DNA from: Minisyncoccota bacterium
GTDB lineage: Bacteria > Patescibacteriota > Minisyncoccia > Phycocordibacterales > UBA9973
Direction of reading: 5' to 3'
DNA: 64,000 nt
Assembly (NCBI GenBank): GCA_035994985.1
Contig: DASYKZ010000008.1
Coordinates: 3,643-67,642, forward strand
Shown: in pieces, positions 11,438 to 44,555 of the stretch
Layout of the letters: each line of letters starts with the position of its first letter
Numbering within the stretch: the first letter of the stretch is position 1
The notes under the pieces: model-generated
Database searches by the model: none
The model's input: the letters and a program-made list of their open reading frames with translations, nothing else
What the model was told of the DNA's origin: nothing
Made by a program: the position numbers and the translations under genes

Positions 11438-11439
11438 AT

Positions 11440-12122: not shown

Positions 12123-12142
12123 TCTATGTTATATATAGAGTA

Positions 12143-12210: not shown

Positions 12211-12216
12211 GTTTAA

Positions 12217-14157: not shown

Positions 14158-14182
14158 GCTAGAAATTTTTTAAAATAAAACT

Positions 14183-17083: not shown

Positions 17084-17114
17084 GTTTTTATTCTGATTTT
17101 ATTCCAGCCGGTTT

Positions 17115-18224: not shown

Positions 18225-18228
18225 TATT

Positions 18229-19707: not shown

Positions 19708-19708
19708 T

Positions 19709-28318: not shown

Positions 28319-29074
28319 TTGTCTTTTATAGTTATAATGGACAACATGTTTGGAAATGACCAAAATCTAAAAGACACGGGAGGAAACTCTTTAAAAGACA
28401 CTTTCTCTGCGCCTGTCCCTTACAAAAATACAGACACCTTTTTTGTGCATTATCCAAAGCTCGGGAAGCTCATCACAGCTCTCTACATGGTAACGGACAT
28501 AATGGACAAAGGGGAGCCAGTCCGCTTGAAATTAAGGACATTCGGAACAGAAATTCTATCGGACATACATTCCGCATCAAGGACAGAGCTGAATCAAAAA
28601 ATACAAACTCTCCTCTCCTTTCTGGATATTGCGCTTGCGGTAAGCTTGGTTTCGGAAATGAATTTCAGCATTTTAAAAAAAGAGTTCATAGAACTCAGCC
28701 AGTCTTTGGCGGAGTCAAAAGAATACAGGGAGCCGACTCCGGTAAACCATATATGGCTGGAAGAATTTCTAAAGCCAGAGCAATCTCTCGGCAAGCCGGA
28801 AATGAAAATTCCACAAAAGGGCAAAGATGCTAGCTCTATTCCCGGCCAAGCCAAAGACAGTAATACCTCGAAGAAACAAAGGCGCGATGAGATAATCCAA
28901 GCCATAAGAGACAATGGCAATAATGCTACGATAACCGATGTGAAACTGAAGGCTTCAGGCTCGCTTGTGGCTTGCGGGGAGAAGACTCTGCAAAGAGAAC
29001 TCATAGCTATGGTCAAAGACGGCATTTTAGACAAAACCGGCGAAAAACGGTGGAGTAAATATTACGTGCACTAA
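28319..29074 (+). CDS. hypothetical protein with predicted C-terminal winged-helix DNA-binding domain
   Basis: 251 aa; C-terminal ~70 aa resemble wHTH (RDEIIQAIRDNGNNATITDV ... LIAMVKDGILD). Confidence 0.4.
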   Translation: MSFIVIMDNMFGNDQNLKDTGGNSLKDTFSAPVPYKNTDTFFVHYPKLGKLITALYMVTDIMDKGEPVRLKLRTFGTEILSDIHSASRTELNQKIQTLLSFLDIALAVSLVSEMNFSILKKEFIELSQSLAESKEYREPTPVNHIWLEEFLKPEQSLGKPEMKIPQKGKDASSIPGQAKDSNTSKKQRRDEIIQAIRDNGNNATITDVKLKASGSLVACGEKTLQRELIAMVKDGILDKTGEKRWSKYYVH

Positions 29075-29284: not shown

Positions 29285-29332
29285 TTATCCACACAGTATA
29301 TATTGCCCTAAGGTAGGACTGTATATATAATG
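29285..29332 (+). promoter_or_regulatory. conserved upstream motif GTTATCCACAnAGTnTAT ... TATATATAAT (contains perfect DnaA-box nonamer TTATCCACA); copy 1
   Basis: same motif at 31875-31920 upstream of paralogous gene at 32000. Confidence 0.45.
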
Positions 29333-29678
29333 TTGTTGTGGTTACGGACTGCGTATTTTTTATGCAATTCGTAATTCGCGCATATCTATTTTTGCTTTAA
29401 TTTTTGTTTGGGATTTCGTCGAAAAAATCTCAAGCGATGACCTAGCGAAAATAGGTTCCCCGGCGAAATAGTTTATTTTGGTCGGGGAAAAGAAAGGTCA
29501 TTGAAAACTGAATAGCTATGTTTTCAATGATGTTAGTTTATCTCTGTTCATTGTTTCCTTGTCCGCCATATTATTAGCAATTATTAATTAGTTAATGGCG
29601 GGTAAAAAATAATGATAGGAAAAAATACGCTTTTAGTTTTGTCGAAACTTATTAATGGCGTAGTAATTATAAAAATTT

Positions 29679-31787
29679 ATGAGTAACTTATTAAAATCAA
29701 AAACTTTTAAAGTTGGAGGTTTAGTCGTAGCTTTGGCTATGATGGTTGCTGTAGGTTCTGCAAGTGCAGCAACTACTACAACAACTAGTACAACTACAAC
29801 TGTAGTTGCTTCTGCGTATACATACTCAGGAGTGATGAAAGCTGGTTCAAAAGGCCCTGGAGTTTCTACTCTACAGGCTGCATTGAACAGTGTACAAACA
29901 ATGCAAATCGTTGTTGACGGATCTTTCGGTCCTGCGACAAAATCTGCTGTGATGGCTTTCCAAGCTTCTCACGGTTTGGTTGCTGACGGTGTTGTCGGTC
30001 CTATGACTGGCGCAAAGCTTACTGAAGCAACAGTCGCTGTTATCACCATCCCTGGTGGTTTCCCAGCAGGTTGTACTTCAAACAACGGATTCAGCACTAC
30101 TACCGGTATGTCATGTGCAGTTAGCACGACTCTTCCAGCAGGTTGTACATCAACTTCTGGATTCAGCCCAACTACTGGCATGTCTTGCGGAAGTGGAACA
30201 TCTGGCGGAACTCTTTCAGGTGGTGAAACTGATGTGAGCAATGTTAGCATCGACGATGCTGATGATGACACAATCACCGAGAATGCAAGCAAGGCTCCTG
30301 TTGCCGACATCCAATTTGATGTCGACGATGCTGATGCTCAGCTTGTTCGCGCTGATGTAGTATTCCAAATTAAAAGTGGTGAAACTGGCGAAGACAAGCC
30401 TTGGGACGCTTTTGACAAGGTTTACTTGATGGACGGTTCTACTGTCCTAGCAAGCATGGATGCAAGCGACTCAGACAATTGGGATGACGCTGCAGACATT
30501 ACTGGTGGCGACACTGGTTCTGATGCACAACGCATTCGTTTCAATGGTATCAACAAAATTTACAAGGAAGGCTCTAACAACAACGAACTTTGGGTAGCTG
30601 TTGATGTGGCTTCTTCTGTTGATGGATCTGACACTGGCAATGACTGGCTCGTAGAAGTTGACGACGAGGGTCTACGCTTCACCGATGGTGCAAGCATAGA
30701 TACTTTTGTTGATACTGATACAGCTTCGGAATCTGCTGGCTTCGCAATTGAAACCTCAGGAGGAAATTCTGACATTACTATCACCAAAGATTCTTCAAGC
30801 CCAGACGCTCAGAATCTAGAAGTGAAAGAAAGCTCTTCTACAACAGCTACTGTTGCAGTCTTCAAAATCAAGGCTGACGAAGACGGTGGTGATATAAAGA
30901 TCGATGATTTCCCAATATCTCTTGCAGTTACTAACTCAGTTGCAACGGTTAGCAACGACCATGTAAACGATGTTGTAGACGATGTTATGATTGTCGTAGA
31001 TGGTCATACATATTCTGCTGATGAATCTCCTGTTACCAATACTCCACAAACATTCCATTTCAGCGATATTGAAGATGATGATGTTGTGGTTAACGCTGGC
31101 GATACAATGACTGTAACTGTAAAGGTTAAATTCAAGTCACAAAGCTCAGGTCCAGTTAACTACGACAACGGTGCTACTGTAATAGCTACATCTGCTGTTG
31201 ATGATAGTGACTTCGAAGACGCTGATACTGGCGATGATGTCGCTACTCAGACTTTGGCCACTCCAAGTGGAGAGACTATGACATTGTTCTCCTCAGGAGT
31301 AGCAATCTCTAACTTCGACTCATCATTCGATACAACATCTGATGGTGGTCTTATCTCAAAGCAAACATTCACAATCGACTTCGATGTGACTGCCTTTGGT
31401 GATACGTTCTACATCCCTAAGCCTGTAGCTCGAGAAACCTCAGCAACAGCTTTGGCTGCTCTCTTGGATGACAGCGCCGGATTGGCCTTCACTGTAGAAA
31501 ACAGTGCTGGTGTTATCCAGAACGCTGGTACCATAGCTTCCGCTAACTCATCTTTGACATCATCTGCTGATACTGATTTCGCTGGGTTCTTCACAGTTAA
31601 CGAAGGTGATACTGAAACCTTCCATGTAACTGTTGAACTTAACGATACCGGTTCTACAGCTGGTTTCTATCACGTACAGCTCACAGAGCTTATGTATGAC
31701 TTAGACAACAGCAATGGTTCTAACGAAGCTGTTTCTACATTCTCTCCTGCTCAAGACTACGAGACTCAGGACGTGAAGGTAGACTAG
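29679..31787 (+). CDS. secreted surface protein: signal peptide, Thr-rich linker, PG_binding_1-like domain, 2x Cys-bracketed 17-aa repeat, large acidic (Asp-rich) beta-rich region
   Basis: GPGVSTLQAALN...DGSFGPATKSAVMAFQASHGLVADGVVGP matches peptidoglycan-binding domain consensus; repeats AGCTSNNGFSTTTGMSC / AGCTSTSGFSPTTGMSC. Confidence 0.6.
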   Translation: MSNLLKSKTFKVGGLVVALAMMVAVGSASAATTTTTSTTTTVVASAYTYSGVMKAGSKGPGVSTLQAALNSVQTMQIVVDGSFGPATKSAVMAFQASHGLVADGVVGPMTGAKLTEATVAVITIPGGFPAGCTSNNGFSTTTGMSCAVSTTLPAGCTSTSGFSPTTGMSCGSGTSGGTLSGGETDVSNVSIDDADDDTITENASKAPVADIQFDVDDADAQLVRADVVFQIKSGETGEDKPWDAFDKVYLMDGSTVLASMDASDSDNWDDAADITGGDTGSDAQRIRFNGINKIYKEGSNNNELWVAVDVASSVDGSDTGNDWLVEVDDEGLRFTDGASIDTFVDTDTASESAGFAIETSGGNSDITITKDSSSPDAQNLEVKESSSTTATVAVFKIKADEDGGDIKIDDFPISLAVTNSVATVSNDHVNDVVDDVMIVVDGHTYSADESPVTNTPQTFHFSDIEDDDVVVNAGDTMTVTVKVKFKSQSSGPVNYDNGATVIATSAVDDSDFEDADTGDDVATQTLATPSGETMTLFSSGVAISNFDSSFDTTSDGGLISKQTFTIDFDVTAFGDTFYIPKPVARETSATALAALLDDSAGLAFTVENSAGVIQNAGTIASANSSLTSSADTDFAGFFTVNEGDTETFHVTVELNDTGSTAGFYHVQLTELMYDLDNSNGSNEAVSTFSPAQDYETQDVKVD

Positions 31788-31835
31788 TAGCTTAGTTACC
31801 ATCTCTACACTGGCTGATACACCTTAGAACGTATC

Positions 31836-31868
31836 TAAAAAACCACCCCTTACCCGGGTGGTTTTTTG
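31836..31868 (+). terminator. intrinsic terminator
   Basis: aaaaaaccaccccttacccgggtggtttttt. Confidence 0.7.
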
Positions 31869-31875
31869 TTTGGGG

Positions 31876-31920
31876 TTATCCACAGTCTATTGCGTTTGTG
31901 AGTCTATATCTGCTATAATT
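31876..31920 (+). promoter_or_regulatory. conserved upstream motif with TTATCCACA nonamer; copy 2
   Basis: ggttatccacagtctat ... tgctataattatatatag. Confidence 0.45.
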
Positions 31921-31999
31921 ATATATAGCTTTATTAAAAAGCGCTTAGTTGTTAGGTCTTTATTATAAATCATTATTAATTAGCATTAAATAAAATCAT

Positions 32000-34012
32000 A
32001 TGAGTAATATTAAAAAAGTTTTAGGTCTAAGCATGGCTGTTTTAGCCGTTGCTTTTGTTTTTAGTTTTTCTGCTCCGAAAGCAGAAGCAGCGGCGACAGT
32101 ATGTACTGCAACTGCTACAGGTCTATGGAGCGCAGCTACTACATGGGACGCTGTTTGTAATGGAAGTGATGCCGCTATTCCTGACGCAGATGATACTATC
32201 GTAATTAACAGTGGCGTGGTTGTTACTGTAGATGCAGGCAACCCTTCAGTCGCAGGCATTACAATCAATAGTGCGGCTGCTGCAAACGGGCTTATAATTT
32301 CAACAGGGCAAACTCTGACAGATACAGGTAGTTTGGCATATGTAGCAAACGCAGGAACCGCTGACCAGACTATAACCATAGCTGGTACAGGAGCTCTTTC
32401 AGTTGCTACTACTTCTACGATTCCTGCTCCTACTAATACTGGTAGTTCAATAATAACTATTACTGGCGCAGGAACATTTACAGCGACTGGAACCTTAGCG
32501 CTTACGGGAGGCGCTACTGCGGGAAATGTAACTGTTGCAGTAGGCGCAGGTACTTTGGCTGCTGGGGGTGCTGTTAACATTACCGGAGCAGCTGGTCCTG
32601 GAGTAGCTCAAATTACAGTAAGTACTGGAGCTATGACTACTGTTGGCGCTGCTACTCTTGCTGGGTCAGCTACCACAGCTAAATTAACTTTTACAGGTGC
32701 CGGCACAAGAACTCTTGCATCTTTGACTGATACTCTTGGAGATGTTGACCTTACGGGTACAACTGGAATTACTGGTGGGCTTACTTATACAGCTGGTACA
32801 TTTGATATAAATGCTGGTACAACAACAGTTGGCGGGGCTACAACAATTGCTGCTAGTAAAACACTTGTAATAGCAAGTGGAGCAACAGGTAATTTTGCAG
32901 CGGTAACTGGTACAGGATCAGCAGCTATAACAAATGCTGGTACTCTTAGTACTGCAGCTTTAACCTTGGGTGCAGGAGGAGCATTAACAAACTCTGGCAC
33001 ATCAACTTCTTCAGGTACTATTACTTTAGGCGCAGCAGCAACTGTCACAAACTCTGGCACAATGACTGCTTCCGGTACTTTTGGTACAGGGGCTGGTGTC
33101 GTTGTAAACACTGGCACATTGAACCTTGCTGGAGCTACTACTAATGCTTTGAATGTCACAACGTTGACTGCAAGTACTTCAGGTATCGTTGATTATAATT
33201 TAGCTGCAGCTCAGACAATCATGACTGGAGCTTATTACGATCTTAAACTTACTGGTGGTAGTAGTGCAGTAAAGACTATTGCCGCTACTTCCTCTGTTGC
33301 TCACGATTTGACCATAGCAACAGCTACTCTAGCTAGTTTGACTAACGGTGGTGCTTCCACTGCTGCCTTCATGATTCTTGGTACCAACGACTCGAATCCT
33401 GGTACTTGGGGCGGTACTTCTTCTGCAGCATCATTTACAAATTCCACTTTCTTTTCCACAGGACCAACAGGTACCATCGATGTGGACCATGAACACGGCA
33501 GCAGCACTGTGACTCACCACAGTGGTGGAGGAGGAAATTCATCTTCTAGTTCTTCATCATCTTCAACAACTACTACTCCTACTGACACTACTACAACTAC
33601 AACTGACGCAGGTTGCGTAAATGGTAATGCTTTCAGTGCAACAACTGGAAAAAAGTGTACTTCTACAACAACCACTACGACTGCAACAGTCGCACCTGGA
33701 TGTGAGAATGGACACATATTCAGCTCAGTAGACGGCAAGAAGTGTGCAGTTATCGCTTCTACCACAACTACTACGACAACCACAACCTCTACTACAGGTT
33801 TTGGAAGCGCTGTAACAAAGCTAGGCAGTAAGGGAACAGCTTGCTTGGCTTGGCAGACATTCTTCAACAACAAAGCTAATGCTGGCCTAGTCTTGGACGG
33901 AAACTGCGGACCAAAAACTATGGCTGCAGCGAAAGCTTGGCAGGCATCTGCCGGCTTGGTAGCTGACGGACTTCTTGGCCCAAAGAGTATCGCCAAGGCA
34001 TTGAGCATGTAA
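32000..34012 (+). CDS. secreted surface protein: signal peptide, long Thr/Gly/Ala-rich beta-helix-like repeats, 2x Cys-bracketed repeat, C-terminal PG_binding_1-like domain
   Basis: DAGCVNGNAFSATTGKKC / PGCENGHIFSSVDGKKC then LGSKGTACLAWQTFFN...DGNCGPKTMAAAKAWQASAGLVADGLLGP. Confidence 0.6.
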   Translation: MSNIKKVLGLSMAVLAVAFVFSFSAPKAEAAATVCTATATGLWSAATTWDAVCNGSDAAIPDADDTIVINSGVVVTVDAGNPSVAGITINSAAAANGLIISTGQTLTDTGSLAYVANAGTADQTITIAGTGALSVATTSTIPAPTNTGSSIITITGAGTFTATGTLALTGGATAGNVTVAVGAGTLAAGGAVNITGAAGPGVAQITVSTGAMTTVGAATLAGSATTAKLTFTGAGTRTLASLTDTLGDVDLTGTTGITGGLTYTAGTFDINAGTTTVGGATTIAASKTLVIASGATGNFAAVTGTGSAAITNAGTLSTAALTLGAGGALTNSGTSTSSGTITLGAAATVTNSGTMTASGTFGTGAGVVVNTGTLNLAGATTNALNVTTLTASTSGIVDYNLAAAQTIMTGAYYDLKLTGGSSAVKTIAATSSVAHDLTIATATLASLTNGGASTAAFMILGTNDSNPGTWGGTSSAASFTNSTFFSTGPTGTIDVDHEHGSSTVTHHSGGGGNSSSSSSSSSTTTTPTDTTTTTTDAGCVNGNAFSATTGKKCTSTTTTTTATVAPGCENGHIFSSVDGKKCAVIASTTTTTTTTTSTTGFGSAVTKLGSKGTACLAWQTFFNNKANAGLVLDGNCGPKTMAAAKAWQASAGLVADGLLGPKSIAKALSM

Positions 34013-34044
34013 CAAAACTTGAGCCTCTGGCTTAAGTAAAGAAA

Positions 34045-34076
34045 CTAAAAACCGCCCTCTTTGGGCGGTTTTTAGT
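34045..34076 (+). terminator. intrinsic terminator
   Basis: aaaaaccgccctctttgggcggttttt. Confidence 0.7.
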
Positions 34077-34116
34077 TGGTTGACTTTTAAAATTACTTTG
34101 TATATACTTTAGGTAT

Positions 34117-34386
34117 ATGAAAACATCAGCATTAAGCATTAAAATAGACCCGAAAGTAAAGCATGAGGCACAAAAAGTTGCCGACCAGCTTGGCTTTTCT
34201 CTTTCCGCTATCATAAACGCTTCACTTAAAAATTTAGTTCGCTCTAAGACCGTATCTTATTCTCTGTTAGAGCCTGCACCGCTTTTGAAAAAAGCTATTA
34301 CTTCTGCTCGCGCGGAACGCGCTCGCGGCAAGTCTGCCGGCCCATTTTATTCATCTAAAGATATGATGAAATCACTCACGTCTTAA
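34117..34386 (+). CDS. dinJ: type II antitoxin, RelB/DinJ family
   Basis: 89 aa; ribbon-helix-helix N-terminus (LSIKIDPKVKHEAQKVADQLGFSLSAIINASLKNLV) typical of DinJ. Confidence 0.7.
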   Translation: MKTSALSIKIDPKVKHEAQKVADQLGFSLSAIINASLKNLVRSKTVSYSLLEPAPLLKKAITSARAERARGKSAGPFYSSKDMMKSLTS

Positions 34387-34390
34387 TTTT

Positions 34391-34651
34391 ATGACTGTTG
34401 CCTATAGCCGGATTTTCAAAAAAATGTTCAAGAAAAAGAATGCTTGGGTGCAAAACAAATTCGGAGAACGTCTTTCTCTGTTTATGAAAGATAGAAACAA
34501 TCCAACACTGAACAATCACCCGCTTGGTGGAATATGGGCGGGTTGTAGAAGCATAAATATAACTGGAGATTTTCGGGCGGTGTACGAAGAGCTCGGCGAT
34601 GACCAATTTCAATTTATTGCGATAGGTACACACAGCGAGCTATACACATAA
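34391..34651 (+). CDS. yafQ: type II toxin, YafQ/RelE family mRNA interferase
   Basis: 86 aa; HPLGGIWAGCRSINITGDFRAVY pattern of YafQ (H..L.G.w.g.re.HI..D..liY); 5-nt gap after antitoxin. Confidence 0.7.
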   Translation: MTVAYSRIFKKMFKKKNAWVQNKFGERLSLFMKDRNNPTLNNHPLGGIWAGCRSINITGDFRAVYEELGDDQFQFIAIGTHSELYT

Positions 34652-34723
34652 GAAGTTTTTATTACACTATTACAACCAAAGGTTGAGCTTTGCAAAAGTT
34701 TCACCACAAGGTACAATTAGAGC

Positions 34724-34909
34724 ATGTTTGCAATCATAATGAAGATTTTTTATCTGGTAGTCATATTGCCCTTTTATATATTCCAGGAAGGCAATGAGCT
34801 CTTGGTAAAGTCTTTAAAACATAGAGGCATATACTGGGATTCGTGGTATTCCTTGCTCTGCTTGCTTATTCTATTGGTAATCATTTTATTATTGATGGGG
34901 TATTATTAA
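34724..34909 (+). CDS. small hydrophobic membrane peptide
   Basis: 61 aa, two TM segments; a second 49-aa TM peptide ORF follows on + strand at 34919-35068. Confidence 0.25.
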   Translation: MFAIIMKIFYLVVILPFYIFQEGNELLVKSLKHRGIYWDSWYSLLCLLILLVIILLLMGYY

Positions 34910-35173
34910 AAATTATTTATGTTTAATAAGCATTTTTTTAAAATGGCCGTCACTTTCATAGGCATCATAATTCTCGGCCTGATTGGAGTCTTTGTGGTCG
35001 GCAATATGGAGAAGGGAGACAAGCAGGATACAACAGACACGTCTTCTACGTGTTGCAAAGCAAAATAATTGTGATATAGTGTATATGCCGCAAAGAAGAT
35101 AGGTGCATATATGCATAAATCCTATCTAGTGGGTCGACGGCTGTTTGCCGTTTTTTTAATTTAAAAACCAATT

Positions 35174-35653
35174 ATGTTATTAAAATCAAAAAAAGAAGAA
35201 ATAATCAAAGACCTTGAAGGAGCCATCAAAGAATCGCAATCTGTGGTGTTTGTGAATTTTCACGGGCTCAAAGTGAGCGACGAGACAGCGCTCCGCCGGG
35301 ATTTGCGGAATGAAGGCGTGAATTACAAGGTATCCCGAAAGACGTTGCTCAAGCGCGCGCTCACGGGCAAGGCCGGAGGAGAAATTCCGGAGCTCTCCGG
35401 CGAAGTGGCTATAGCTTACTCAAAGGATGAGACATCAAGCCCGCGGGAAATTTACAACTTTCAAAAAACCCATAAAGGAGCCTTGAGCATTTTAGGAGGA
35501 ATATTTGGAGGGCAGTTTGTCGGCGGAGAGAGGATGATGGAAATAGCCACCATCCCAAGCAGGGAAGTATTGCTGTCCAAGATTGCATTCTTGCTAAAGA
35601 GCCCTATGCAGCGTTTTGCGCTGGCCTTGAGCGAAGTGGCCAAGAAGAAGTAG
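35174..35653 (+). CDS. rplJ: 50S ribosomal protein L10
   Basis: KEEIIKDLEGAIKESQSVVFVNFHGLKVSDETALRRDLRNEGVNYKVSRKTLLKRAL. Confidence 0.85.
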   Translation: MLLKSKKEEIIKDLEGAIKESQSVVFVNFHGLKVSDETALRRDLRNEGVNYKVSRKTLLKRALTGKAGGEIPELSGEVAIAYSKDETSSPREIYNFQKTHKGALSILGGIFGGQFVGGERMMEIATIPSREVLLSKIAFLLKSPMQRFALALSEVAKKK

Positions 35654-35733
35654 AAATTTACACATTATAAAAATTAATTTAAAAAATAGCGTCGCGCCGA
35701 AAGGACTTACGCGACGTGATTTAGCAAAATCAT

Positions 35734-36102
35734 ATGAATAAAGATACATTGTTAGAATGGTTAGACAAAGCGACGACTCTCGAACTAAACGACATCGTCA
35801 AGGCTATAGAAGAAAAGTTTGGCGTATCAGCTGCTGCTGTAGCAGTATCAGGCGGTGCGGCGGCGTCCGGCGCTGAAGCCGCAGAAGAACAGAGCACTTT
35901 CTCTGTCGTCCTGACTTCAGCCGGCGAAGCTAAAATCGCCGTGATGAAGGTGGTCAAAGAAGCGCTGGCCCTTGGCCTCAAAGACGCTAAGGACCTGGTA
36001 GACGCCGCTCCTTCAACCCTAAAAGAGGGAATGAAGAAAGAGGAAGCAAACGACCTCAAGAAGAAAATTGAGGAAGCAGGAGGGAAAGTCGAATTGAAAT
36101 AA
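35734..36102 (+). CDS. rplL: 50S ribosomal protein L7/L12
   Basis: Ala-rich hinge and C-terminal domain ...[27 protein letters not shown]. Confidence 0.9.
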
Positions 36103-36129
36103 TCAATCAAAATAAAGCTAAAAAATACC

Positions 36130-36160
36130 CAGCAGATGCTGGGTATTTTGATATATAATA
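36130..36160 (+). terminator. intrinsic terminator after rplL
   Basis: aaaatacccagcagatgctgggtatttt. Confidence 0.7.
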
Positions 36161-36199
36161 TAAGTGTAACAAGTCACTTACTGGTACGTCATACTAACT

Positions 36200-37249
36200 A
36201 TGAAAAAATATACATTATTTTTGGCGAGTTTCGTCTTTATTATTCTTAGCTTATTTAGTTTTAACATAAATTCTGCGAGTGCCGCCAATTGCGCACCCGG
36301 GGATTTGTTTGATACGTCTACCGGCCAGTCTTGCAGTAATATAGATGCGACAGCAGGATGCCAGAGCGGCTATTTATTTAGCCCGCTTACCGGCAAACCT
36401 TGTTTTGTATCACCTCGTCCTTTATGCCCAATTGTACTGGCCGAGGATTTTAGAATTGGCGCAAAGGGAGAAAGTGTCCGGGCATTTCAGCAAATGTTAA
36501 TAGATGCTGGTTTCTTTCCTGGGAAAATCGATGGAATTTATGGTCCTATTACTTCTGCGGCCGGCATAAATTATTATAAAAAATGCCCTAAGCCTTTCCC
36601 GTCTCCAGATGCTCCAATCATTAGCGGCGTAAGTGGTCCGCAATCATTAAACGTAAATCAACAAGGGACGTGGACCATTACAGCTTCAAGTGCAACCGGA
36701 GGAAATCTTTCTTATTCGGTTGTTTGGGGAGACATGGTTTACATACCTGAGTCAGGAATAAAATTTGATGTGACCCAACAGTCCGCTACATTTACCCATA
36801 GCTATTCTCTACCGGGAACATACACACCACAATTTACTGTCACCAGCGCAAATACAATAAATTGCATCACGGCTCCGTGCCCTTCTAACGCGGGAAGCGC
36901 GCAAGCAAGTTTGAGCGTGAACGTAGGCGGAATATCAGCTAGTAGTCCAGTGATTACTTCTATTTCTCCTGTTTCGGGCAGAGTCGGCACAAAAATTACC
37001 ATTACCGGAAAAGACTTTGCCTCTACTGGCAACAGCGTCAAGTTTGGCAAAGGGTATATAAACGGACTTGATTCAAATACTGACGGCACATCTATAACTT
37101 TTACGCTGCCGAGCGGCATGGGAGTTTGCCGTGGTGACGCAGAAATATGTATTGCCCTCGCTATGCAGGTTTCGCCCGGCACGTACGAGGTTTCGGTATG
37201 GAACACGCATAATACCAGCAACTTAGCTTATTTCACAGTAACTGAATAA
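36200..37249 (+). CDS. secreted protein: signal peptide, 2x Cys-bracketed repeat, PG_binding_1-like domain, C-terminal IPT/TIG-like domain
   Basis: ANCAPGDLFDTSTGQSC / AGCQSGYLFSPLTGKPC; FRIGAKGESVRAFQQMLIDAGFFPGKIDGIYGPITSAA; PVITSISPVSGRVGTKITITGKDF. Confidence 0.55.
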   Translation: MKKYTLFLASFVFIILSLFSFNINSASAANCAPGDLFDTSTGQSCSNIDATAGCQSGYLFSPLTGKPCFVSPRPLCPIVLAEDFRIGAKGESVRAFQQMLIDAGFFPGKIDGIYGPITSAAGINYYKKCPKPFPSPDAPIISGVSGPQSLNVNQQGTWTITASSATGGNLSYSVVWGDMVYIPESGIKFDVTQQSATFTHSYSLPGTYTPQFTVTSANTINCITAPCPSNAGSAQASLSVNVGGISASSPVITSISPVSGRVGTKITITGKDFASTGNSVKFGKGYINGLDSNTDGTSITFTLPSGMGVCRGDAEICIALAMQVSPGTYEVSVWNTHNTSNLAYFTVTE

Positions 37250-38775: not shown

Positions 38776-38882
38776 ATTGCTGTTTTTACAATTTTCTCCT
38801 TAGAAAAAGCCCCATAATGGGGCTTTTTCTTTTTCCCATGCTGACATTTACTTTCCCGCTATTGAGTTGTACAATTAAGGAT

Positions 38883-40475
38883 ATGTTAAAGATGAAAAAC
38901 TTATTGTTTTTGGGGCTTGTATTTGGCCTTTTCATATCTATTACTAGTTTAGAAGCAATTAAAAAAGTAAGCGCAGAAGGTAAAGGAGAGGTACAAACGG
39001 GCACGAAGGGAGAGGTGCGAAATCCGAGCCTCATAAAACATAACTCTACTGTAAAAACGCCCGAGGCAGAGCCAAGAGAGATACAAGAAAATTTGAAGGG
39101 CACGCTCCGGGAAATAATCCTAGACTCATTTGAGAGGGACCCAAGCAAAGCTGGCGCAGGCATCGCGTACGCGATAGAAACACCAGACTTAAAATCGGTA
39201 TCCGTAGAATTTTCCGGAACCAAAGCAAGTGAAAAATTCCGCAATGCAGATATTGAAGTCGAGGGCGGATGGAATAGAAATGGTAGTTTTACGGTAAAAA
39301 AAGTAATTTCTGTAGTGCCTCAAAATATCGAAAGCGTAGTCCGCAGCGAAATAGAAACTCTGGACGCAAACGGGGCGCCGACCAAATCGAGCCTGCTCGG
39401 CCCGGAAGCTACCACAGGAGCCTATACAGTCTTGGTTATACCGGTAAATTTCACCGACGTCACTTCACAGCCGGTAACGGTAGCCCAGATACGGGATGTC
39501 CTTTACGGAAGCAGCTCGTCGATAAATTCTCAATTTAAAGAAATGTCCCAAGGCAGATTTTACCTGACAGGCATCCAGCGTCCCGACATAGATATCCTGG
39601 ATTGGGTTACACTCCCGCATACAAGCGACAATTGTCCAAGTAATATGCTCGGCACATGGGCAAACGAGGCGAGAGTCCTTGCCCGGGCCCAGGGTTTTGA
39701 ACCAAACAACTACAGAAGCGTTGTATTGATTTTTCCGTCAAATATCCCAAGTTGTAATGGCTGGGGAGGGCAGGGTGCCATTGGTACCCTTGGCAGCACT
39801 ATTGGTTCCAACAATGTATGGATACAATATGAGGCCGGGCTGGACTTAAAATTTTTAAGAAGCATGCTTATGCACGAGATGGGGCATAACCTCGGCTTAA
39901 TGCATTCGAGCCTGGTAAAACATTGCCAGGAATCAGCTTTAATTCCCCAAGATTGCCAAAGCATAGAATATGGTGACCATTTTTCACCCATGGGAAATAC
40001 CGTTTTCTTCCTCCGCAATTATAATAATTTTCATCTCGAGCAGCTTGGCTGGCTCGGTGCCGGAGCTAAAGTTACAAATTTGCCGCAAGCCGGAACCTAT
40101 AATCTGAATTTATTTTCTCCGTCGTTTATAAAAGGGTCTCAGGTCGTCAGTATTCCTCTGAAGAATTCAAATGGAGTTCCCACGGGACAGAGCGTGTACT
40201 TGGAATTCCGCAGACAAACGCCGCCGTTTGATATGTTTACAGGCGACTTTTTTCAAAATGTAACCAGAGGCGTCTCAGTCAGATTTGCCCCATCCAGCCT
40301 CACGGCCCAGACAAATACGTATTTGCTGGACTACACCGAAACAACTGAACCAATTGATGATGCGGCAATTGAGGTGGGGCAAACGTATGTAAATTCAACC
40401 TATGGTTTCAGCATTAGGACAAATTCTATCAATCCCGGACGGGGAGCAAGCATTACTATTCAGCTGACCCGCTAA
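38883..40475 (+). CDS. secreted metzincin-type zinc metalloprotease
   Basis: signal peptide MLKMKNLLFLGLVFGLFISITSLEA; HEMGHNLGLMH (HExxHxxGxxH); longer ORF from 38817 lacks signal peptide so ATG 38883 preferred. Confidence 0.6.
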   Translation: MLKMKNLLFLGLVFGLFISITSLEAIKKVSAEGKGEVQTGTKGEVRNPSLIKHNSTVKTPEAEPREIQENLKGTLREIILDSFERDPSKAGAGIAYAIETPDLKSVSVEFSGTKASEKFRNADIEVEGGWNRNGSFTVKKVISVVPQNIESVVRSEIETLDANGAPTKSSLLGPEATTGAYTVLVIPVNFTDVTSQPVTVAQIRDVLYGSSSSINSQFKEMSQGRFYLTGIQRPDIDILDWVTLPHTSDNCPSNMLGTWANEARVLARAQGFEPNNYRSVVLIFPSNIPSCNGWGGQGAIGTLGSTIGSNNVWIQYEAGLDLKFLRSMLMHEMGHNLGLMHSSLVKHCQESALIPQDCQSIEYGDHFSPMGNTVFFLRNYNNFHLEQLGWLGAGAKVTNLPQAGTYNLNLFSPSFIKGSQVVSIPLKNSNGVPTGQSVYLEFRRQTPPFDMFTGDFFQNVTRGVSVRFAPSSLTAQTNTYLLDYTETTEPIDDAAIEVGQTYVNSTYGFSIRTNSINPGRGASITIQLTR

Positions 40476-40690: not shown

Positions 40691-41393
40691 AAATCAGCAC
40701 GGTTTGAAAATTGAAAACTTAATTCTTGCCCTATTTCTTTTCCCGTTCGCGGGATTGGGTCTTTTTAGAGGCAAGAAAAATTCGTTTACATGGTTATCCG
40801 AGCGGTCGGAAATTATAATTATGTAAAAGGATTCTTGCCCGCCTTTGGCGGGTGAATTTTTCCACTGAAAAGGTGGAATTGTGATTTTCAAATTTCTTAA
40901 CAGGAAATTTAAGGGCGTACGGTGGATGCCTTGACTGTAAGAGGCGATGAAGGACGTAGCAAAGCTGCGATAAGCTTCGGGGAGGTGCCTAGCAACCTTT
41001 GATCCGGAGATTTCCGAATGGGGAAACCCTGCATAGTAAACCTATGTAACTTTTATCTTTATGATAATAAGAGCGTACCCTGGGAAGTGAAACATCTCAG
41101 TACCAGGAGGAGTAGAGAACAATAGTTATTTTCTTAGTAGCGGCGAGCGAAAAGGAAGAAGCCCAAACCGATGTAGCAATATATCGGGGTTGTAAGATGA
41201 CAATGTAGATTTCTAGAAGAGTCAAAAAATACATAATTAGTTGAAGTTGCTGGAAAGCGACACCATAGGGGGTGATAGTCCCGTAAGCGAAAATTATGTG
41301 TCTCTTTTATTGTTATTCTTGAGTACCCCAGGACATGAATGGCCGGGGGGAATCCAGCGGAACTAACCGCTAAGGCTAAATACTCTTACAGAT

Positions 41394-41430
<37 letters not shown>

Positions 41431-42165
41431 CAGCCCGATTAGGGCGGTGAAATAGACCTGAAACCGTATGTCTACAAGGAGTCGATGCACTGCTTCGGCG
41501 GTGCTACGGCGTGCCTATTGAAGAATGAGCCAACGAGTTTATTCATACTGCAAGGCTAAGTGGGCTAAAACCACAGAGCCAAAGGGAAACCGAGTGTTAA
41601 TAGCGCGACTTTAGTAGTATGCATAAGACCCGAAGCCAGGTGAGCTTGCCATGAGCAGGTTGAAGTTCGCAGAAATGCGGATGGAGGACCGAACCGGTAG
41701 ATCGTACAACGTCTTCGGATGACTTGTGGTAAGGAGTGAAAAGCTAATCGAACCTGGTAATAGCTGGTTCTCTCCGAAATAGCTTTAGGGCTAGCGTCGT
41801 GTGTTTTTTCTGGGGGTAGAGCACTGGAAGATTTCGACAGGGAGCAATCTCGCGAAACCTATCAAACTCCGAATACCAGAAACCATAGCACGGCAGTTAG
41901 GCCATGGGGGCGAAGCTCCATTGGCCAAAAGGGAAACAGCCCAGATCTCAAAATAAGGTCCCTAAATATATACTAAGTGTAAGACAAGAAGGTGAGATTT
42001 CTTAAACAATGAGGAGGTTGGCTTAGAAGCAGCCATCCTTTAAAGATAGCGTAACAGCTCACTCATCTAGAGATTTTGCGTCGAAAATAATTGGGGCTAA
42101 GTATATTACCGAATTTGAGGATTCGTAGACTTCATCAAGAAAAAATTGTTCTTTTGTTTTAATGT

Positions 42166-42241
42166 GGGGGCGTAGCTCAGATGGTAGAGCACTTCGCTGG
42201 CAGCGAAGGGGTCGGGAGTTCGATGCTCCTCGCCTCCACCA
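42166..42241 (+). tRNA. tRNA-Ala (anticodon GGC), encoded inside the 23S helix-45 intervening sequence
   Basis: 76 nt cloverleaf: acceptor GGGGGCG/CGCCTCC with G3:U70, D arm GCTC-AGATGGTA-GAGC, anticodon loop CTGGCAG, T arm GGGAG-TTCGATG-CTCCT, encoded CCA. Confidence 0.8.
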
Positions 42242-42277
42242 CTTCATTTTTTGAAGTGAATTGTTTTGTTTTTACGT

Positions 42278-42355
42278 AGCCGCTTAGCTCAACATGGATA
42301 GAGCACTTGCCTAACAAGCAAGGGGTTACGGGTTCGAGCCCCGTAGCGGCCACCA
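42278..42355 (+). tRNA. tRNA-like gene, formally Val (anticodon AAC), atypical (A1:C72 mismatch, A34)
   Basis: D arm GCTC-AACATGGATA-GAGC, anticodon stem CTTGC/GCAAG loop CTAACAA, T arm ACGGG-TTCGAGC-CCCGT, 3' ACCA; may be a tRNA mimic rather than a decoding tRNA. Confidence 0.45.
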
Positions 42356-43170
42356 CCTTACTTTTTGTAAGGTAACAAATATTTTTTCCCAAGGAATTTT
42401 CTTTCGAGAACTTTCTTTGGGTTCTTGATGAAGTCTACGAGTGGTAGGAGAGTGTTCCACTCTGCTGTGAAGGAAGACTCGTGAGAGCTTCTGGAGCGTG
42501 TGGAAGTAAGAATGTTGGCACAAGTAACCGCAATGATGTTGAGAACGCATCACGTCGAAAGATCAAGGTTTCCTTGGTAATGATAATCAGCCAAGGGTTA
42601 GTCGGGCCTAAGGGAATGGTGAAAACCGTACTCGATGGACACAGGGTTAATATTCCCTGACTTCTGTATATAGTGATGGGATGACGGAGGGTAGTATGTA
42701 TCGCTCATTATTGGATTTGAAGTTTATGCCTTAATTGTACGCTATAGGAAAATCCGTAGCGTGACTTAAATGTCATATGAAAGAGGAGTAAAAAGTTTTC
42801 CGTTCGCGGAGGGCAATGATACAAAGCACGCTTCCAAGAAAACTCTCTAAACTTATATATATAGAATCCGTACCGCAAACCGACACAGGTGATCAGGTCG
42901 AGTAGACCAAGACGAACGAGTGAGTGGTCCCCAAGGAACTCGGCAAAAAAGCAGCCGTAACTTCGGGATAAGGCTTGCCCCTCTTTATTGAGGGGCCGCA
43001 GCGAAAGTATCTCTGGCAACTGTTTACCAAAAACACAGCTCCCTGCGAACTCGTAAGAGGATGTATAGGGGGTGACACCTGACCAATGCCAGAAGGTCAA
43101 ATATCGGCGTTTCTAATAGCAATATTATTGGTGACTGATATAAGCCCTGGTGAATGTCGGCCGTAACTAT

Positions 43171-43494
43171 AGACAAAACCGTTGTAGTTACGCAAATAAA
43201 TCTTGCTATATGCTGGAAAACCCGTGTATCTTCAAATACTCATTCAAGGAAACTTGAGTAGTGAAAATTTTGAAGCGTTGCCTAAATCTTAATTGATCGG
43301 TTAACGGATAATCAGCAGGCAACCTGCGCAAGCAGAGAGTCCTCAGAGACTATACGCAAGACAATTTCAAATCAATAATTGGAGTCGACGATTTGAAAAT
43401 GATGATATAGTCCGACCTCTATGGCGACATAGAGCTAACACGTTTTAGTTTTTGTTTGGTAAACAATAGATTACATATTCAACCTTAAGAAAAG
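43171..43494 (+). mobile_element. group I intron in 23S (site equivalent to E. coli ~1917), ORF-less
   Basis: splits conserved GGCCGTAACTAT | AACGGTCCTAAGG; IGS ccgttGTAGTT near 5' end pairs with 5' exon AACTAT (P1, U.G) and 3' exon AACGG (P10); P7 halves cagAGACTAta / gaTATAGTCcgacc (cf. Tetrahymena GAUAUAGUCGGACC); ends in G. Confidence 0.75.
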
Positions 43495-44171
43495 AACGGT
43501 CCTAAGGTAGCGAAATACCTTGTCGGGTAAGTTCCGACGCGCACGAATGGTGTAATGACTGGAGAACTGTCTCGGGGACCAGCTCGGTGAAAATACAATA
43601 CCGGTGAAGATGCCGGTTAAGTGCAGTTAGACGAAAAGACCCTAGAAGCTTTACTATAACTTGATATTGAGTATGTTTTTAGACTGCGTAGCATAGATGG
43701 GAGAGGTTTGATGGATAAGGTTTCGGCTTTGTTCTACTCGTCAGTGAAATACCATTCTTTTTGAAGGCATATTCTAACCAATGCGGCAAAAACGCATTGA
43801 GACAGTATCTGGTGGATAGTTTTACTGGGGCTGTACCCTCCTAAAAAGTAAAGGAGGGGTTTAAAGGTAATCTAGGCGCGAATGGAAACCGTGCCGATAG
43901 TGTAATAGCACAAGATTGCTTGACTGTGAGAGGTACATCTCGAGCAGGTGGGAAACCAGAATATAGTGAACCGACCACCCGTATTAGACGCGGTGGAAGA
44001 TTAACGGATAAAAGCTACTCTAGGGATAACAGGCTAGTTCCGCCCAAGAGTTCATATCGACGGCGGAGTTCGGCACCTCGATGTCGGCTCACCTTAGCGC
44101 GGTGGCGGAGAAGCTACCAAGCGTTTGGCTGTTCGCCAATTAAAAAGGTACGCGAGCTGGGTTCAGACCGT

Positions 44172-44555
44172 TTTGAAAATACAGGCACTAGGCTTTAGGC
44201 GCTAGGCATTAGCATTAGATTTTGCTAGAGCCTAAAGCCTAAATTTCCTAAAGCCTTGTTTTCGGGACAGTCTGAACCCTCAGAGGAAATAAGAGCTCAA
44301 ATGAACTTATACTGTTTTAATCGAAGACAACCAAGTGTATTAAATTACACACCACGGCGGTTCTAAATTTTATTTAGGAAGAAGTCGGGGTTTTCGGTGA
44401 AATCCAATCCTGAGATTTATCGAAGGAGGACAACACCGAGTGCCGTAAAGGCATGTAGAGACTACAAACCGACCACGAGAAATTGTGAATGTATAGTCCA
44501 ATCCCTTTAGTAATAAAGGTTCCGCGCTTGTAGAGCGCGGAAGTAAAATAAAATG
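44172..44555 (+). mobile_element. group I intron in 23S (site equivalent to E. coli ~2593), ORF-less
   Basis: splits conserved GGGTTCAGACCGT | CGTGAGACAGGTTGGTC; P7-like tAGAGACTAcaaa / tgTATAGTCc; ends in G; boundaries +/- few nt. Confidence 0.6.

Follow-up and report, generated by a model that had tools for sequence, protein, structure and literature searches.

Three genes (P1, P2 and P3) in the 64,000-nucleotide window, the whole stretch of DNA analysed here, are surrounded by housekeeping genes and encode proteins in which a PG_binding_1 domain (PGB, PF01471) stands beside a short repeat bracketed by two cysteines. Are they a paralogous family displaying variable adhesins from a wall-anchoring cassette, as the original prediction supposed, and what might the shared part do?

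Three exported proteins with a common terminal cassette

All three reading frames are present (Table 1). P1 and P3 match NCBI entries of Candidatus Paceibacterota bacterium at 100% ('peptidoglycan-binding domain-containing protein' and 'IPT/TIG domain-containing protein', respectively), and since P1 is identical to such an entry, the organism is a CPR bacterium, as had been supposed. Each protein begins with the expected signal peptide (K/R-rich n-region, hydrophobic core, AxA-type site), with cleavage, read by eye, predicted after residue 30 in P1 and P2 and residue 28 in P3; the N-terminus MS[N/K]LLKSKFLLG is kept in P1 orthologs. Inspection of the C-termini and leaders of P1-P3 revealed no LPXTG motif, lipobox or C-terminal TM segment.

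Table 1. Annotated features of the three genes and their flanks (window positions).
Feature	Position	Strand	Details
P1 promoter-like region	29285..29331	+	TTATCCACA at 29285-29293, about 31 nt upstream of TATAAT (29326-29331); consensus scan
Structured 5' leader RNA of P1-family genes	29496..29681	+	four helices; covariance model R1
P1 gene	29679..31787	+	702 aa: signal peptide, Thr-rich linker, PGB, 2 Cys loops, 3 Ig-like domains
P1 Sec-type signal peptide	29679..29768	+	aa 1-30, ...GSASA|A; read from sequence
P1 PG_binding_1 domain	29829..30023	+	aa 51-115; Pfam 55.5 bits (aa 59-114)
P1 Cys-loop repeats (two)	30063..30188	+	C132-C146 (30072-30116), C156-C170 (30144-30188); PAGCTSNNGFSTTTGMSC / PAGCTSTSGFSPTTGMSC
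P1 passenger	30231..31784	+	aa 185-702; about three acidic Ig-like beta-sandwich domains
P2 promoter-like region	31876..31919	+	TTATCCACA (31876-31884) and TGCTATAAT, -10 hexamer 31914-31919; consensus match only
P2 gene	32000..34012	+	670 aa: signal peptide, Thr/Ala/Gly-rich passenger, then C-terminal modules (Ser/Thr linker, 2 Cys loops, Thr linker, PGB)
P2 Cys-loop repeats (two)	33614..33745	+	C539-C553 (33614-33658), C568-C582 (33701-33745); motif scan
P2 C-terminal PG_binding_1 domain	33818..34000	+	aa 607-667; Pfam 20.8 bits, cutoff 23
Terminator-like hairpin downstream of P2	34043..34077	+	15 bp; consensus match only
P3 gene	36200..37249	+	349 aa: signal peptide, 2 Cys loops, truncated PGB, PKD-like domain, TIG
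P3 Cys-loop repeats (two)	36290..36403	+	C31-C45 (36290-36334), C54-C68 (36359-36403); motif scan
P3 truncated PGB-like domain	36446..36586	+	aa 83-129; two helices; bracketed by C76 and C129
P3 passenger	36608..37240	+	PKD-like beta-sandwich (aa ~137-242) and IPT/TIG domain (aa 250-347); AF2

The repeat is an exact C-x13-C unit present twice in each protein, as predicted: a six-frame scan found exactly six copies with an aromatic-S/D...T/D-G-x-x-C core, all inside P1-P3. A strict pattern matches four times in the window versus zero times across 30 shuffles; a looser pattern that catches all six copies is expected about 1.3 times per shuffled window. The two P1 copies share 80% amino acid and 73% nucleotide identity, and since synonymous differences separate copies of the same gene, selection is taken to maintain them.

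The PGB sits 14-25 residues from the repeats in all three proteins, and its assignment passes profile search in P1 and P3. In P1 it comprises three helices (AF2 pLDDT >90) and both DG.FG..T motifs. The P2 domain falls below the Pfam cutoff and is nonetheless homologous to that of P1 (48% identity over 86 aa, E=1.7e-16), with 58 bits on a family-specific PGB HMM over the same residues. The P3 domain is a truncated, two-helix version: its Pfam match (27.1 bits, gathering cutoff 23) covers profile positions 2-33 of 57 only, and its match to the family HMM positions 3-41 of 67. Its helices (residues 91-102 and 116-128) are modelled at pLDDT 87-96 (P3 mean 82.0), and the flanking Cys pair is kept in homologs. 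As originally described, P1 and P3 carry the cassette at the N-terminus and P2 carries it at the C-terminus; its internal order differs as well (PGB before repeat in P1, repeat before PGB in P2 and P3).

The term 'paralogous family' was too strong, because mutual similarity among P1-P3 is limited to the cassette and orthologs of P1 and P2 occupy matching syntenic positions in another genome; a syntenic P2 ortholog of identical layout lies in locus L121. Judged by their sequences, the three proteins owe their likeness to old domain sharing rather than to a local gene family.

A repeat family of CPR bacteria

Searches of Pfam-A, NCBIfam and PDB sequences returned no match to the Cys repeat, which agrees with its proposed status as an undescribed domain. 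An exhaustive HMMER search recovered, at 50% identity, 738 clusters with E<=1e-3 and 187 with E<=1e-10; the family has the consensus [L/Y/F]-P-x-G-C-[T/S]-S-x-x-G-[Y/F]-S-x-T-T-G-x-x-C, a period of about 24 aa and 2-13 copies per array. Ten of 19 positions are well conserved among 565 copies; beside the two Cys, Ser and Thr are conserved at +2, +7, +9 and +10. A DNA-pattern scan of GTDB genomes located 120 loci, 118 of them from Patescibacteria-type or unlabelled MAGs; IMG/VR gave no real match in viral contigs, although CPR phages are poorly sampled. An occurrence in phage lysins could have spoken for wall binding; none was seen. As far as sequence comparison reaches, the Cys loops are a repeat family almost restricted to CPR and absent from the searched domain libraries. 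The repeat, uncatalogued until now, is widespread across this poorly understood group.

Repeat and PGB travel together. PGB is present in 68 of 102 repeat-containing members, and in 287 proteins with both modules the gap between them has a median of 14 aa and is <=40 aa in 90%; PGB precedes the repeat in 188, follows it in 85 and is flanked by repeats on both sides in 14. The neighbouring domains are of Ig-like or binding types (PKD, TIG, Kre9_KNH, Big_7, BACON, He_PIG, a chagasin-type inhibitor and cupredoxin), with no wall hydrolases or other enzymes among them. The predicted modularity is thereby confirmed: the pair moves as a unit in hundreds of proteins, in both orders, at either terminus and with variable Ig-like passengers. 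Where PGB is missing, the array begins <=60 aa from the N-terminus, right after the signal peptide, in 33 of 40 proteins, and in a score-ranked sample it is larger (median 3.5 vs 3 copies, Mann-Whitney p=7e-4). Many of these PGB-less members are small, consisting of a signal peptide and 3-5 loops and nothing else. By this distribution the repeat is an autonomous module.

A putative wall-retention cassette

Our analysis establishes a lineage-restricted, PGB-linked, modular repeat family that keeps its Cys pair. For its role we guardedly favour a reading in which P1-P3 are held non-covalently on the wall by PGB and disulfide-closed loops, with the loops most likely adding avidity. All three proteins would be Sec-exported to the surface of a monoderm-like CPR (Paceibacterota) cell and, having no membrane anchor, lipobox or sortase signal, would be retained there by the two-part terminal cassette, i.e. 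a PGB and tandem 15-residue loops, each putatively closed between Cys0 and Cys14 around a conserved Gly-aromatic-Ser...Thr-Thr-Gly hairpin. The cassette would mark the wall-proximal end, with the Ig-like (P1, P3) or Thr/Ala/Gly-rich (P2) passengers pointing outward, and the loops probably bind a wall component, be it a secondary wall polymer or the glycan strands, as other short tandem wall-binding repeats do. In line with this reading, secreted PGB-domain proteins of P1-like predicted structure, one of which is 692 aa long and carries a signal peptide, are reported to rank among the unknown genes with the highest expression in three cultured-enrichment Paceibacteria (PMC10936435). P1 probably belongs to this class, and is possibly a major envelope protein. 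PG_binding_1 itself is in most proteins only a 'putative' peptidoglycan binder. The anchoring cassette of the original prediction thus stands as a real and mobile PGB-repeat module, whereas wall retention, wall binding by the repeat itself and any ligand of the loops are what we infer.

Could the loops instead be a passive spacer, a rigid, protease-resistant and possibly O-glycosylated stalk, while PGB alone anchors? In P1 they do lie between PGB and passenger, Thr/Ser-rich linkers flank them in P1 and P2, AF2 assigns them scant regular structure, and the P1 ortholog of locus L122 is followed by a Wzy_C/epimerase/glycosyltransferase cluster compatible with glycosylated Ser/Thr. We nevertheless consider this unlikely: in P3 and in the 85 of 287 proteins with the repeat first, the loops are PGB-distal, at the extreme N-terminus, and do not separate PGB from passenger; the array is retained in PGB-less proteins, some of which are scarcely more than signal peptide and loops; and strong conservation of 10 of 19 positions exceeds the needs of a spacer.

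The P1 passenger is modelled mostly at pLDDT >90 (overall mean 84.7), the mature protein has a pI of about 4.05, and its Foldseek PDB matches (pilins, PrgB/AgI-II/FnBPA Ig-like stalks, integrin legs, an archaeal S-layer protein) all have low TM-scores. In P3 the predicted IPT/TIG domain is confirmed (TIG, 36.8 bits), and PKD_4 scores 25.2 bits, under the cutoff of 27 that P3 homologs exceed; these carry PF18911/PF00801. The Thr/Gly/Ala-rich region of P2 has no significant family or PDB match. P1 is no variable adhesin: it represents a length-conserved family of ~650-700 aa with three Ig-like domains (at least 213 homologs of about 610-790 aa) and with its own conserved 5' leader RNA. A second alternative, an improbable one, has PGB and loops as the adhesive end that grips the wall of a host or prey bacterium, while the opposite end tethers the protein to the CPR cell. 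An episymbiotic lifestyle is common among CPR bacteria, but the opposite ends of P1-P3 show no TM, lipobox or LPXTG tether, and conservation of P1 length and sequence across many lineages is unlike typical host-range determinants. Methanogenic archaea are not known to have bacterial peptidoglycan. They are the hosts in the very study whose authors suggested that highly expressed PGB proteins serve in host attachment (PMC10936435).

Very improbable is a role of the repeat as substrate for crosslinking or modification (for example Cys-to-Ser/Thr thioethers or radical-SAM maturation) in place of simple disulfide closure. The conserved Ser/Thr and Cys positions would suit it, HxsA, reported as a PGB-containing protein with rSAM-matured HxS repeats, offers a precedent (PMC13128918), and there is a weak NCBIfam HxsA match, confined to the PGB region. 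However, the proteins are large and Sec-exported from genes amid housekeeping genes, and no radical-SAM, lanthipeptide or similar genes occur among the scanned window ORFs or in the syntenic loci L121 and L122.

Putative pairing of the cysteines

The Cys pair is near-obligate, with both residues in register in 872 of 922 core motifs and the second missing in only three, and the Cys count is even in 330 of 368 complete repeat proteins. Arrays of three copies are the most frequent (53 of 104 PGB-containing proteins), so intra-loop rather than inter-loop pairing fits. AF2 models the loops with little regular structure and at moderate confidence (pLDDT 63-67 in P1, 67-75 in P3), yet places one +6/+13 beta-bridge in all four loops of these two independent models. 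The disulfide-stabilised unit first proposed thus has good indirect support from the conserved pair, even counts and modelled bridges; each loop would be closed by its own Cys0-Cys14 bond. No DsbA/VKOR-type enzyme was found among the scanned window ORFs. Least credible are zinc-ribbon-type Cys4 metal sites formed by loop pairs, which two Cys per unit and two units per protein in P1-P3 would allow, since three-copy arrays would leave one unit unpaired, the C-x13-C spacing does not resemble CxxC knuckles, the proteins lie outside the cytoplasm and zinc-ribbon families do not match the repeat.

Comparison with known surface proteins

Among PF01471 wall proteins, such as SleB (spore cortex-lytic enzyme) with its N-terminal domain, P1 has the full three-helix PGB and P2 a clearly homologous one, and the domain is likewise terminal and modular. 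Here, in contrast, it is fused to non-enzymatic Ig-like passengers instead of hydrolases, is nearly always accompanied by Cys loops, and in P3 and relatives is a shortened two-helix form stapled by the flanking Cys pair. CW_binding_1 (choline-/cell-wall-binding) repeats of Gram-positive surface proteins and phage lysins, which lack Cys, resemble the loops as short (~20-24 aa) tandem hairpin-type repeats with conserved Gly and aromatic residues, variable in number, terminal, fused to diverse passengers and acting by non-covalent avidity (putative here). They differ in sequence (no Pfam match), and Cys loops are not really found in viral contigs. Hevein/CBM18 domains, very small units stabilised by Cys (eight in 30-43 aa) that expose Ser and an aromatic residue, bind GlcNAc polymers, which are chemically akin to the glycan strands of peptidoglycan; they offer an analogy only, with no detectable similarity to the loops.

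The P1 layout (signal peptide, wall-anchor module, acidic Ig-like string, conserved length) is like that of S-layer and surface-array proteins with an N-terminal SLH or CWB2 anchor followed by beta-sandwich domains; one P1 ortholog adjoins a glycan-assembly cluster, and the Foldseek matches include an archaeal S-layer protein. P1 has neither SLH nor CWB2, however, and the low TM-scores fit pilins and adhesin stalks equally. The Cys-rich large extracellular proteins of CPR Peregrinibacteria (~1,655 aa, resembling Myxococcus Cys-rich repeats) share a CPR lineage, signal peptides, high Cys content and a proposed role in rigidity or attachment, but are much larger, and neither PGB association nor a C-x13-C unit is described for them (PMC4736985).

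Putative expression signals and a leader RNA

The promoter-like block of P1 is conserved across three genomes; TTATCCACA shows roughly 10-fold enrichment in CPR loci, at a preferred spacing of 28-33 nt to a -10-like hexamer. P1-family genes also share a conserved, covarying, structured 5' leader RNA without Rfam match. At P1 the covariance model scores 175 bits, and an invariant hairpin, TACGC..TTAGTTT[TGTCG]AAACTAA..GCGTA, lies at 29626-29662. Of the 39 pairs predicted by RNAalifold, 11 show compensatory changes; the paired fraction of cells is 96.8%, vs 37-53% in slid controls, and 0 of 500 shuffles attain the observed value. The model matches about 21 loci, in single copy each, and each of the 23 matches checked (17 + 6) precedes a P1-family ORF.

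A lineage-restricted Cys-loop repeat

Our ORF calls reproduce the three predicted genes, here P1 (702 aa), P2 (670 aa) and P3 (349 aa), which had been described as encoding secreted proteins with two tandem copies each of a Cys-bracketed repeat next to a PG_binding_1 domain (PF01471, hereafter PGB). Read by eye, all three carry probable Sec-type N-termini with AxA-type cleavage sites, and a six-frame scan recovered exactly six copies of the C-x13-C unit (the Cys loop), two per ORF, and none in the remainder of the 64 kb. The strict C-x13-C pattern matched four of the six copies and gave no match in 30 shuffles, which together with the strong family consensus rules out that the motif arises by chance or from low complexity. 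ORFs on the antisense strand of P1 and P2 were taken as by-products of the Thr/Ala/Gly-rich coding strand and rejected as genes. For P1 and P3, NCBI has identical MAG proteins from Candidatus Paceibacterota (CPR/Patescibacteria), which is also the source lineage of the window. The proteins are already in public databases, annotated there by their PGB or TIG domains only (P1 as ‘peptidoglycan-binding domain-containing protein’, P3 as ‘IPT/TIG domain-containing protein’).

Features of the window and of one related locus (SP, signal peptide; PGB, PG_binding_1 domain; passenger, the part outside PGB and loops)
Feature	Position	Strand	Description
tRNA synthetase gene	7802-11437	+	1211 aa, isoleucyl-type class I; His_Phos_1 inserted at aa 519-688, mid catalytic domain
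251-aa ORF	28319-29074	+	no Pfam match; syntenic with P1 in three genomes
TTATCCACA copy	29285	+	before P1
P1 leader RNA	29496-29681	+	structured 5' leader of P1-family genes, covariance model; conserved blocks back to ~29413
TACGCTTTTAGTTTTGTCGAAACT	29626		24-mer
P1	29679-31787		SP-PGB-loops-passenger
TTATCCACA copy	31876	+	before P2
P2	32000-34012		SP-passenger-loops-PGB
Toxin-antitoxin pair	34117-34651	+	RelB/YafQ-type, between P2 and rplJ
P3	36200-37249		SP-loops-PGB-passenger
PGB-like unit of P3	36425-36586		P3 aa 76-129, shortened, two-helix; bracketed by C76...C129
TTATCCACA copy	37869	+
552-aa ORF	38817-40475	+	HEMGH zinc-metalloprotease motif
23S rRNA gene	40898-44846	+	3949 nt vs 2925-nt model
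23S insertion	~42135-42430		~300 nt, in hairpin loop at model position ~1218; inverted repeat on flanks
tRNA-Ala (GGC)	42166-42241		within 23S insertion
tRNA-Val (AAC)	42278-42355		within 23S insertion
Group I intron	43105-43434		in 23S, separate from the insertion
Surface-glycan cluster	11143-20055 of locus L122		directly after P1 ortholog (also in locus L123): Wzy_C (x2), two epimerases, three glycosyltransferases, methyltransferase

The original prediction did not recognise the repeat as a described domain, and this is borne out within the Pfam-A, NCBIfam and PDB searches. Searched by themselves against Pfam-A 2025, the repeat regions matched no family at E<=10; full-length P1, P2 and P3 searched against Pfam-A and NCBIfam r20 gave nothing over the repeat region at E<=1; and the PDB returned a single spurious match (E=1.3) for one repeat sequence and none at E<=10 for a 76-sequence repeat profile. 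No prior description of the C-x13-C motif was found in the literature, only general statements on Cys-rich exoproteins of CPR bacteria (PMC4736985) and on PGB proteins with high expression (PMC10936435).

A word-indexed protein search using a three-sequence repeat profile yielded one protein only. When a profile of four double-repeat sequences was run with HMMER exhaustively against 1.84 billion representatives, 738 clusters matched at E<=1e-3, of which 187 reached E<=1e-10. The consensus from 565 copies in the top 150 proteins reads [L/Y/F]-P-x-G-C-[T/S]-S-x-x-G-[Y/F]-S-x-T-T-G-x-x-C, and these proteins contain 2-13 loops with a commonest period of 24 aa. Scanning one genome per species in GTDB with a hand-made degenerate DNA pattern (a back-translated single repeat) produced at least 120 loci. 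Among the 120 listed, 118 belong to Patescibacteria-type or unlabelled MAGs (Nomurabacteria, Paceibacterota, Minisyncoccia, Gribaldobacteria, Lloydbacteria, Staskawiczbacteria, Taylorbacteria, ‘Patescibacteria group’ and unlabelled MAGs), and the two exceptions are a Mucilaginibacter locus without an in-frame repeat and a 5-kb contig in a ‘Gammaproteobacteria’ bin. Since several MAGs supply two or three loci, the module is multi-copy per genome. In IMG/VR, which was scanned as a phage-lysin test, the strict pattern had no match and the relaxed pattern had one, out of frame in an unrelated ORF, leaving no in-frame occurrence. Judged by these comparisons the Cys loop is an uncatalogued, lineage-restricted repeat family, which belongs to no family tested in Pfam-A, NCBIfam or the PDB.

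The peptidoglycan-binding domain and the architecture of the family

The assignment of a PGB beside the repeat in all three proteins survives profile search. Against the Pfam gathering score of 23 bits, the domains of P1 (55.5 bits) and P3 (27.1 bits) pass and that of P2 (20.8 bits) lies just below; P2 is secured by 48% identity to the P1 domain (E=1.7e-16) and by 58 bits on a family-specific HMM. AlphaFold2 (AF2) predicts three helices in the P1 domain (60-72, 85-97, 108-117), which has two DG.xG..T loops, and the P2 domain, judged by its residues, appears to be a complete three-helix type with two such loops as well. The P3 unit covers profile positions 2-33 of 57, half of the profile, with two helices and one DGIYGPIT loop only; its flanking Cys pair is conserved in the P3 family (homologs P0263-P0290), and the unit resembles a miniature PG_binding_1 stapled by a disulfide. 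In P1, P2 and P3 alike the PGB is a putative peptidoglycan binder.

Across the family the loop is linked to this domain. A Pfam scan found PG_binding_1 in 68 of 102 members, in which Kre9_KNH, PKD, Big_7, TIG, He_PIG, BACON and CARDB are further partners; among P3 relatives a chagasin-type inhibitor, cupredoxin and dockerin also occur, and wall hydrolases are absent as partners from the 102 members and the P3 relatives. In the 287 proteins with both modules, which together form the cassette, the median gap between PGB and nearest loop is 14 aa (<=40 aa in 90%). The PGB precedes the loops in 188 of these proteins, follows them in 85 and is flanked by loops on both sides in 14, and the cassette lies at the N-terminus in 248 and at the C-terminus in 35. 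The cassette is mobile: the shuffled domain order noted originally for three genes recurs across the 287 proteins, with both orders and both termini, and the window trio is a small-scale version of architectures found throughout the family. The loop as a mere extension of the PGB is ruled out by the 40 of 144 proteins in which it occurs without one. In 33 of these 40 the array directly follows the signal peptide; arrays are slightly larger than in PGB-containing proteins (median 3.5 vs 3, p=7e-4), and many of the proteins are small, with little beyond the leader and 3-5 loops. Since PGB-less proteins, near loop-only ones included, keep the array after the signal peptide, the loop is an autonomous module and not an appendage of the PGB.

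As to the passengers, the IPT/TIG domain claimed for one protein was recovered in P3 (PF01833, 36.8 bits, cutoff 20.9). PKD_4 is marginally below its cutoff in P3 itself (25.2 bits vs 27); PKD matches (PF18911/PF00801) are present in P3 homologs, and the PKD-like region of P3 is predicted by AF2 as a confident beta-sandwich. A PDB search with the P2 passenger was empty.

Predicted structure and cysteine pairing

Full-length AF2 models were obtained for P1 (113-sequence alignment, mean pLDDT 84.7) and P3 (77 sequences, 82.0). The three-helix PGB of P1, the two-helix unit of P3 and the beta-sandwich passengers of both are predicted with confidence, the loops with moderate confidence only (pLDDT 63-75). 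All four modelled loops have the identical single predicted beta-bridge, from the aromatic residue at +6 to residue +13 (counted from the first Cys), and the models predict a small hairpin closed by Cys0-Cys14 with S-x-T-T-G at the turn.

Both cysteines are in register in 872 of 922 core motifs, and the second is absent in only three copies; the 23 cases scored as lacking a Cys are mostly length variants with the first Cys displaced by one or two residues. The Cys count is even in 330 of 368 complete proteins, and as a set P1, P2 and P3 have 4, 8 and 10 cysteines, all in sequence-local pairs. These statistics support putative intra-loop disulfides.

Proposed retention on the cell wall

Other anchors are absent from the three proteins. 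Their C-termini (...ETQDVKVD in P1, ...PKSIAKALSM in P2, ...LAYFTVTE in P3) lack LPXTG with a hydrophobic segment and basic tail. By inspection no lipobox [LVI][ASTVI][GAS]C is present in the leaders, which end SASA|A, AEA|A and SASA|AN-C; the residues ahead of the first Cys of P3, A-A-N, do not fit one. The original prediction of a wall-anchoring cassette that displays variable passengers holds for the modular cassette and for the PGB assignment, whereas binding of the wall by the loops is a step we infer. We lean, with some reserve, towards a bipartite cassette that would hold the protein on the wall non-covalently, its disulfide loops adding avidity for a wall component. It would then be functionally like other non-covalent wall-anchoring modules, namely the PGB itself, choline-binding repeats, LysM and SLH; by the Pfam-A, NCBIfam and PDB searches the repeat type is new, and the general theme of modular wall anchors is already known.

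The loops might instead be a passive spacer or a glycosylated stalk, which we consider unlikely; loops distal to the PGB in some proteins and the existence of PGB-less, loop-only proteins both argue against it. CPR bacteria, a large share of bacterial diversity, mostly live attached to other cells, and the cassette could be an adhesin for the host wall, a reading to which we give little credence. An enzymatically modified repeat (rSAM- or RiPP-type, HxsA-like or SCIFF-like) is very improbable, with no radical SAM/SPASM or lanthipeptide synthetase gene among the scanned ORFs of the window and of two syntenic loci (L121, L122). An inter-loop Cys4 metal site is the least credible, because three-copy arrays are the commonest.

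Hardly anything is known of how CPR surface proteins are retained on the wall or which envelope proteins dominate. Occurring in hundreds of protein clusters, the cassette can be used as a signature to search for the CPR surface proteome and as a module to be tested in display or affinity reagents, and it may lead to the surface proteins of highest abundance. If the loops of such a wall-retention cassette bind a defined wall component, they would also report on CPR wall chemistry, which is hard to study without cultures.

Synteny of the P1 and P2 genes

Pairwise similarity among P1, P2 and P3 is confined to the cassette. In a locus from a related genome (L121) the gene order is as in the window (EF-P, RecA, FtsK, a ~270-aa ORF, P1 ortholog, P2 ortholog, L10, L12). 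The P1 ortholog there is 58% identical to P1 and has two loops, the P2 ortholog has two loops and a C-terminal PGB, and beyond L12 lies a large secreted protein with an N-terminal loop. P1/P2-type genes are old and syntenic amid housekeeping genes and are not a recent local expansion. The term ‘paralogous family’ consequently fits the shared modules of the cassette but not the proteins as wholes, which are alike in the cassette only, P1 and P2 having syntenic orthologs elsewhere. Many synonymous-site differences between the two copies within each gene rule out recent intragenic duplication.

In all three genomes in which it is syntenic with P1, the 251-aa ORF is placed after FtsK and before the P1 leader. 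The C-terminal end of its product is conserved (...GEKTLQRELxxMxKxGxLxKTGEKRWSxY) and resembles a winged-helix DNA-binding domain, and the ORF could therefore encode a regulator of P1. The toxin-antitoxin pair is missing from the syntenic L121 locus and is therefore probably a recent insertion.

P1 as a candidate envelope protein and its leader RNA

Full-length homologs of P1 number at least 213, with lengths of about 610-790 aa and PF01471 as their only annotation. The mature part of P1 is acidic (pI about 4.05), and AF2 predicts about three Ig-like sandwiches in its passenger. With full-length P1, Foldseek matched pilins, stalks of Gram-positive adhesins, legs of integrins and an S-layer protein from an archaeon, in every case at low TM-score; these matches are generic Ig-like and do not tell adhesin, pilin and S-layer apart. 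No SLH or CWB2 anchor was matched by Pfam in P1. In Geobacillus, S-layer glycosylation clusters adjoin S-layer genes, and the placement of the surface-glycan cluster of L122, a locus from another Patescibacteria genome, resembles that arrangement; the cluster hints that P1, or a wall polymer bound by P1, is glycosylated.

In a metatranscriptome of three Paceibacteria, secreted PGB-domain proteins are among the highest-expressed genes of unknown function; they are mutually similar in predicted structure, and one of 2079 nt (692 aa) has a signal peptide (PMC10936435). From size and layout we infer that these are P1-family proteins. Together with the Ig-like array and the conserved leader, this expression gives indirect hints of an S-layer protein, and P1 is a candidate major envelope protein.

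Within the gap of ~600 nt upstream of P1, some sequence blocks hardly vary between genomes with P1 proteins of only 47-58% identity. Allowing up to 3 mismatches, the 24-mer TACGCTTTTAGTTTTGTCGAAACT is present in 18 of 124 sources; in 17 of 17 evaluable cases a P1-family ORF follows 47-113 nt downstream. From 13 leaders RNAalifold derived a fold of four helices (39 pairs, compensatory double changes in 11) that includes an invariant hairpin with the loop UGUCG; 96.8% of alignment cells are paired vs 37-53% with partners slid, and the observed covariation was reached by 0 of 500 shuffles. The covariance model finds about 21 CPR loci with one copy each, always ahead of a P1 ortholog, and its six new matches outside the training set are all upstream of P1-family genes. 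In the window it matches before P1 and not at P2 or P3. Rfam yielded two noise matches only (E=0.14 and 0.72), far under gathering scores. The leader is long and structured and belongs to an envelope gene whose expression is probably high, which suggests a role in mRNA stabilisation or translational control; the conservation of this leader marks the P1 family as specially regulated.

A joint reading takes the loop as a CPR-specific wall (glycan or secondary-polymer) binding repeat, the P1 family as the major envelope protein of Paceibacteria, possibly lattice-forming and possibly glycosylated, and the leader as a dedicated, undescribed structured RNA controlling its expression. As a whole we think it rather unlikely; if true, it would offer a first molecular handle on the building and decoration of the CPR envelope. 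With the lineage-defining module come an unexpected, conserved leader RNA and a candidate for a major envelope protein, through which the biology of the CPR envelope becomes more accessible.

TTATCCACA occurs 77 times in 0.97 Mb of CPR loci where ~7 copies are expected, an enrichment of about 10-fold, and it usually precedes a TATAAT-like hexamer by 28-33 nt. Its sequence equals the DnaA-box consensus, and cumulative GC skew has no switch within the window; rather than an origin, TTATCCACA is probably an element associated with promoters in Paceibacteria. As it stands ahead of both P1 and P2, separate promoters are suggested for the two genes.

Other features of the window

Both tRNA genes within the 23S insertion score well, and their processing would split the 23S rRNA into fragments. 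The 552-aa ORF has reprolysin/gametolysin-like matches below threshold only, and its product may be one more secreted protein in a region rich in surface proteins.
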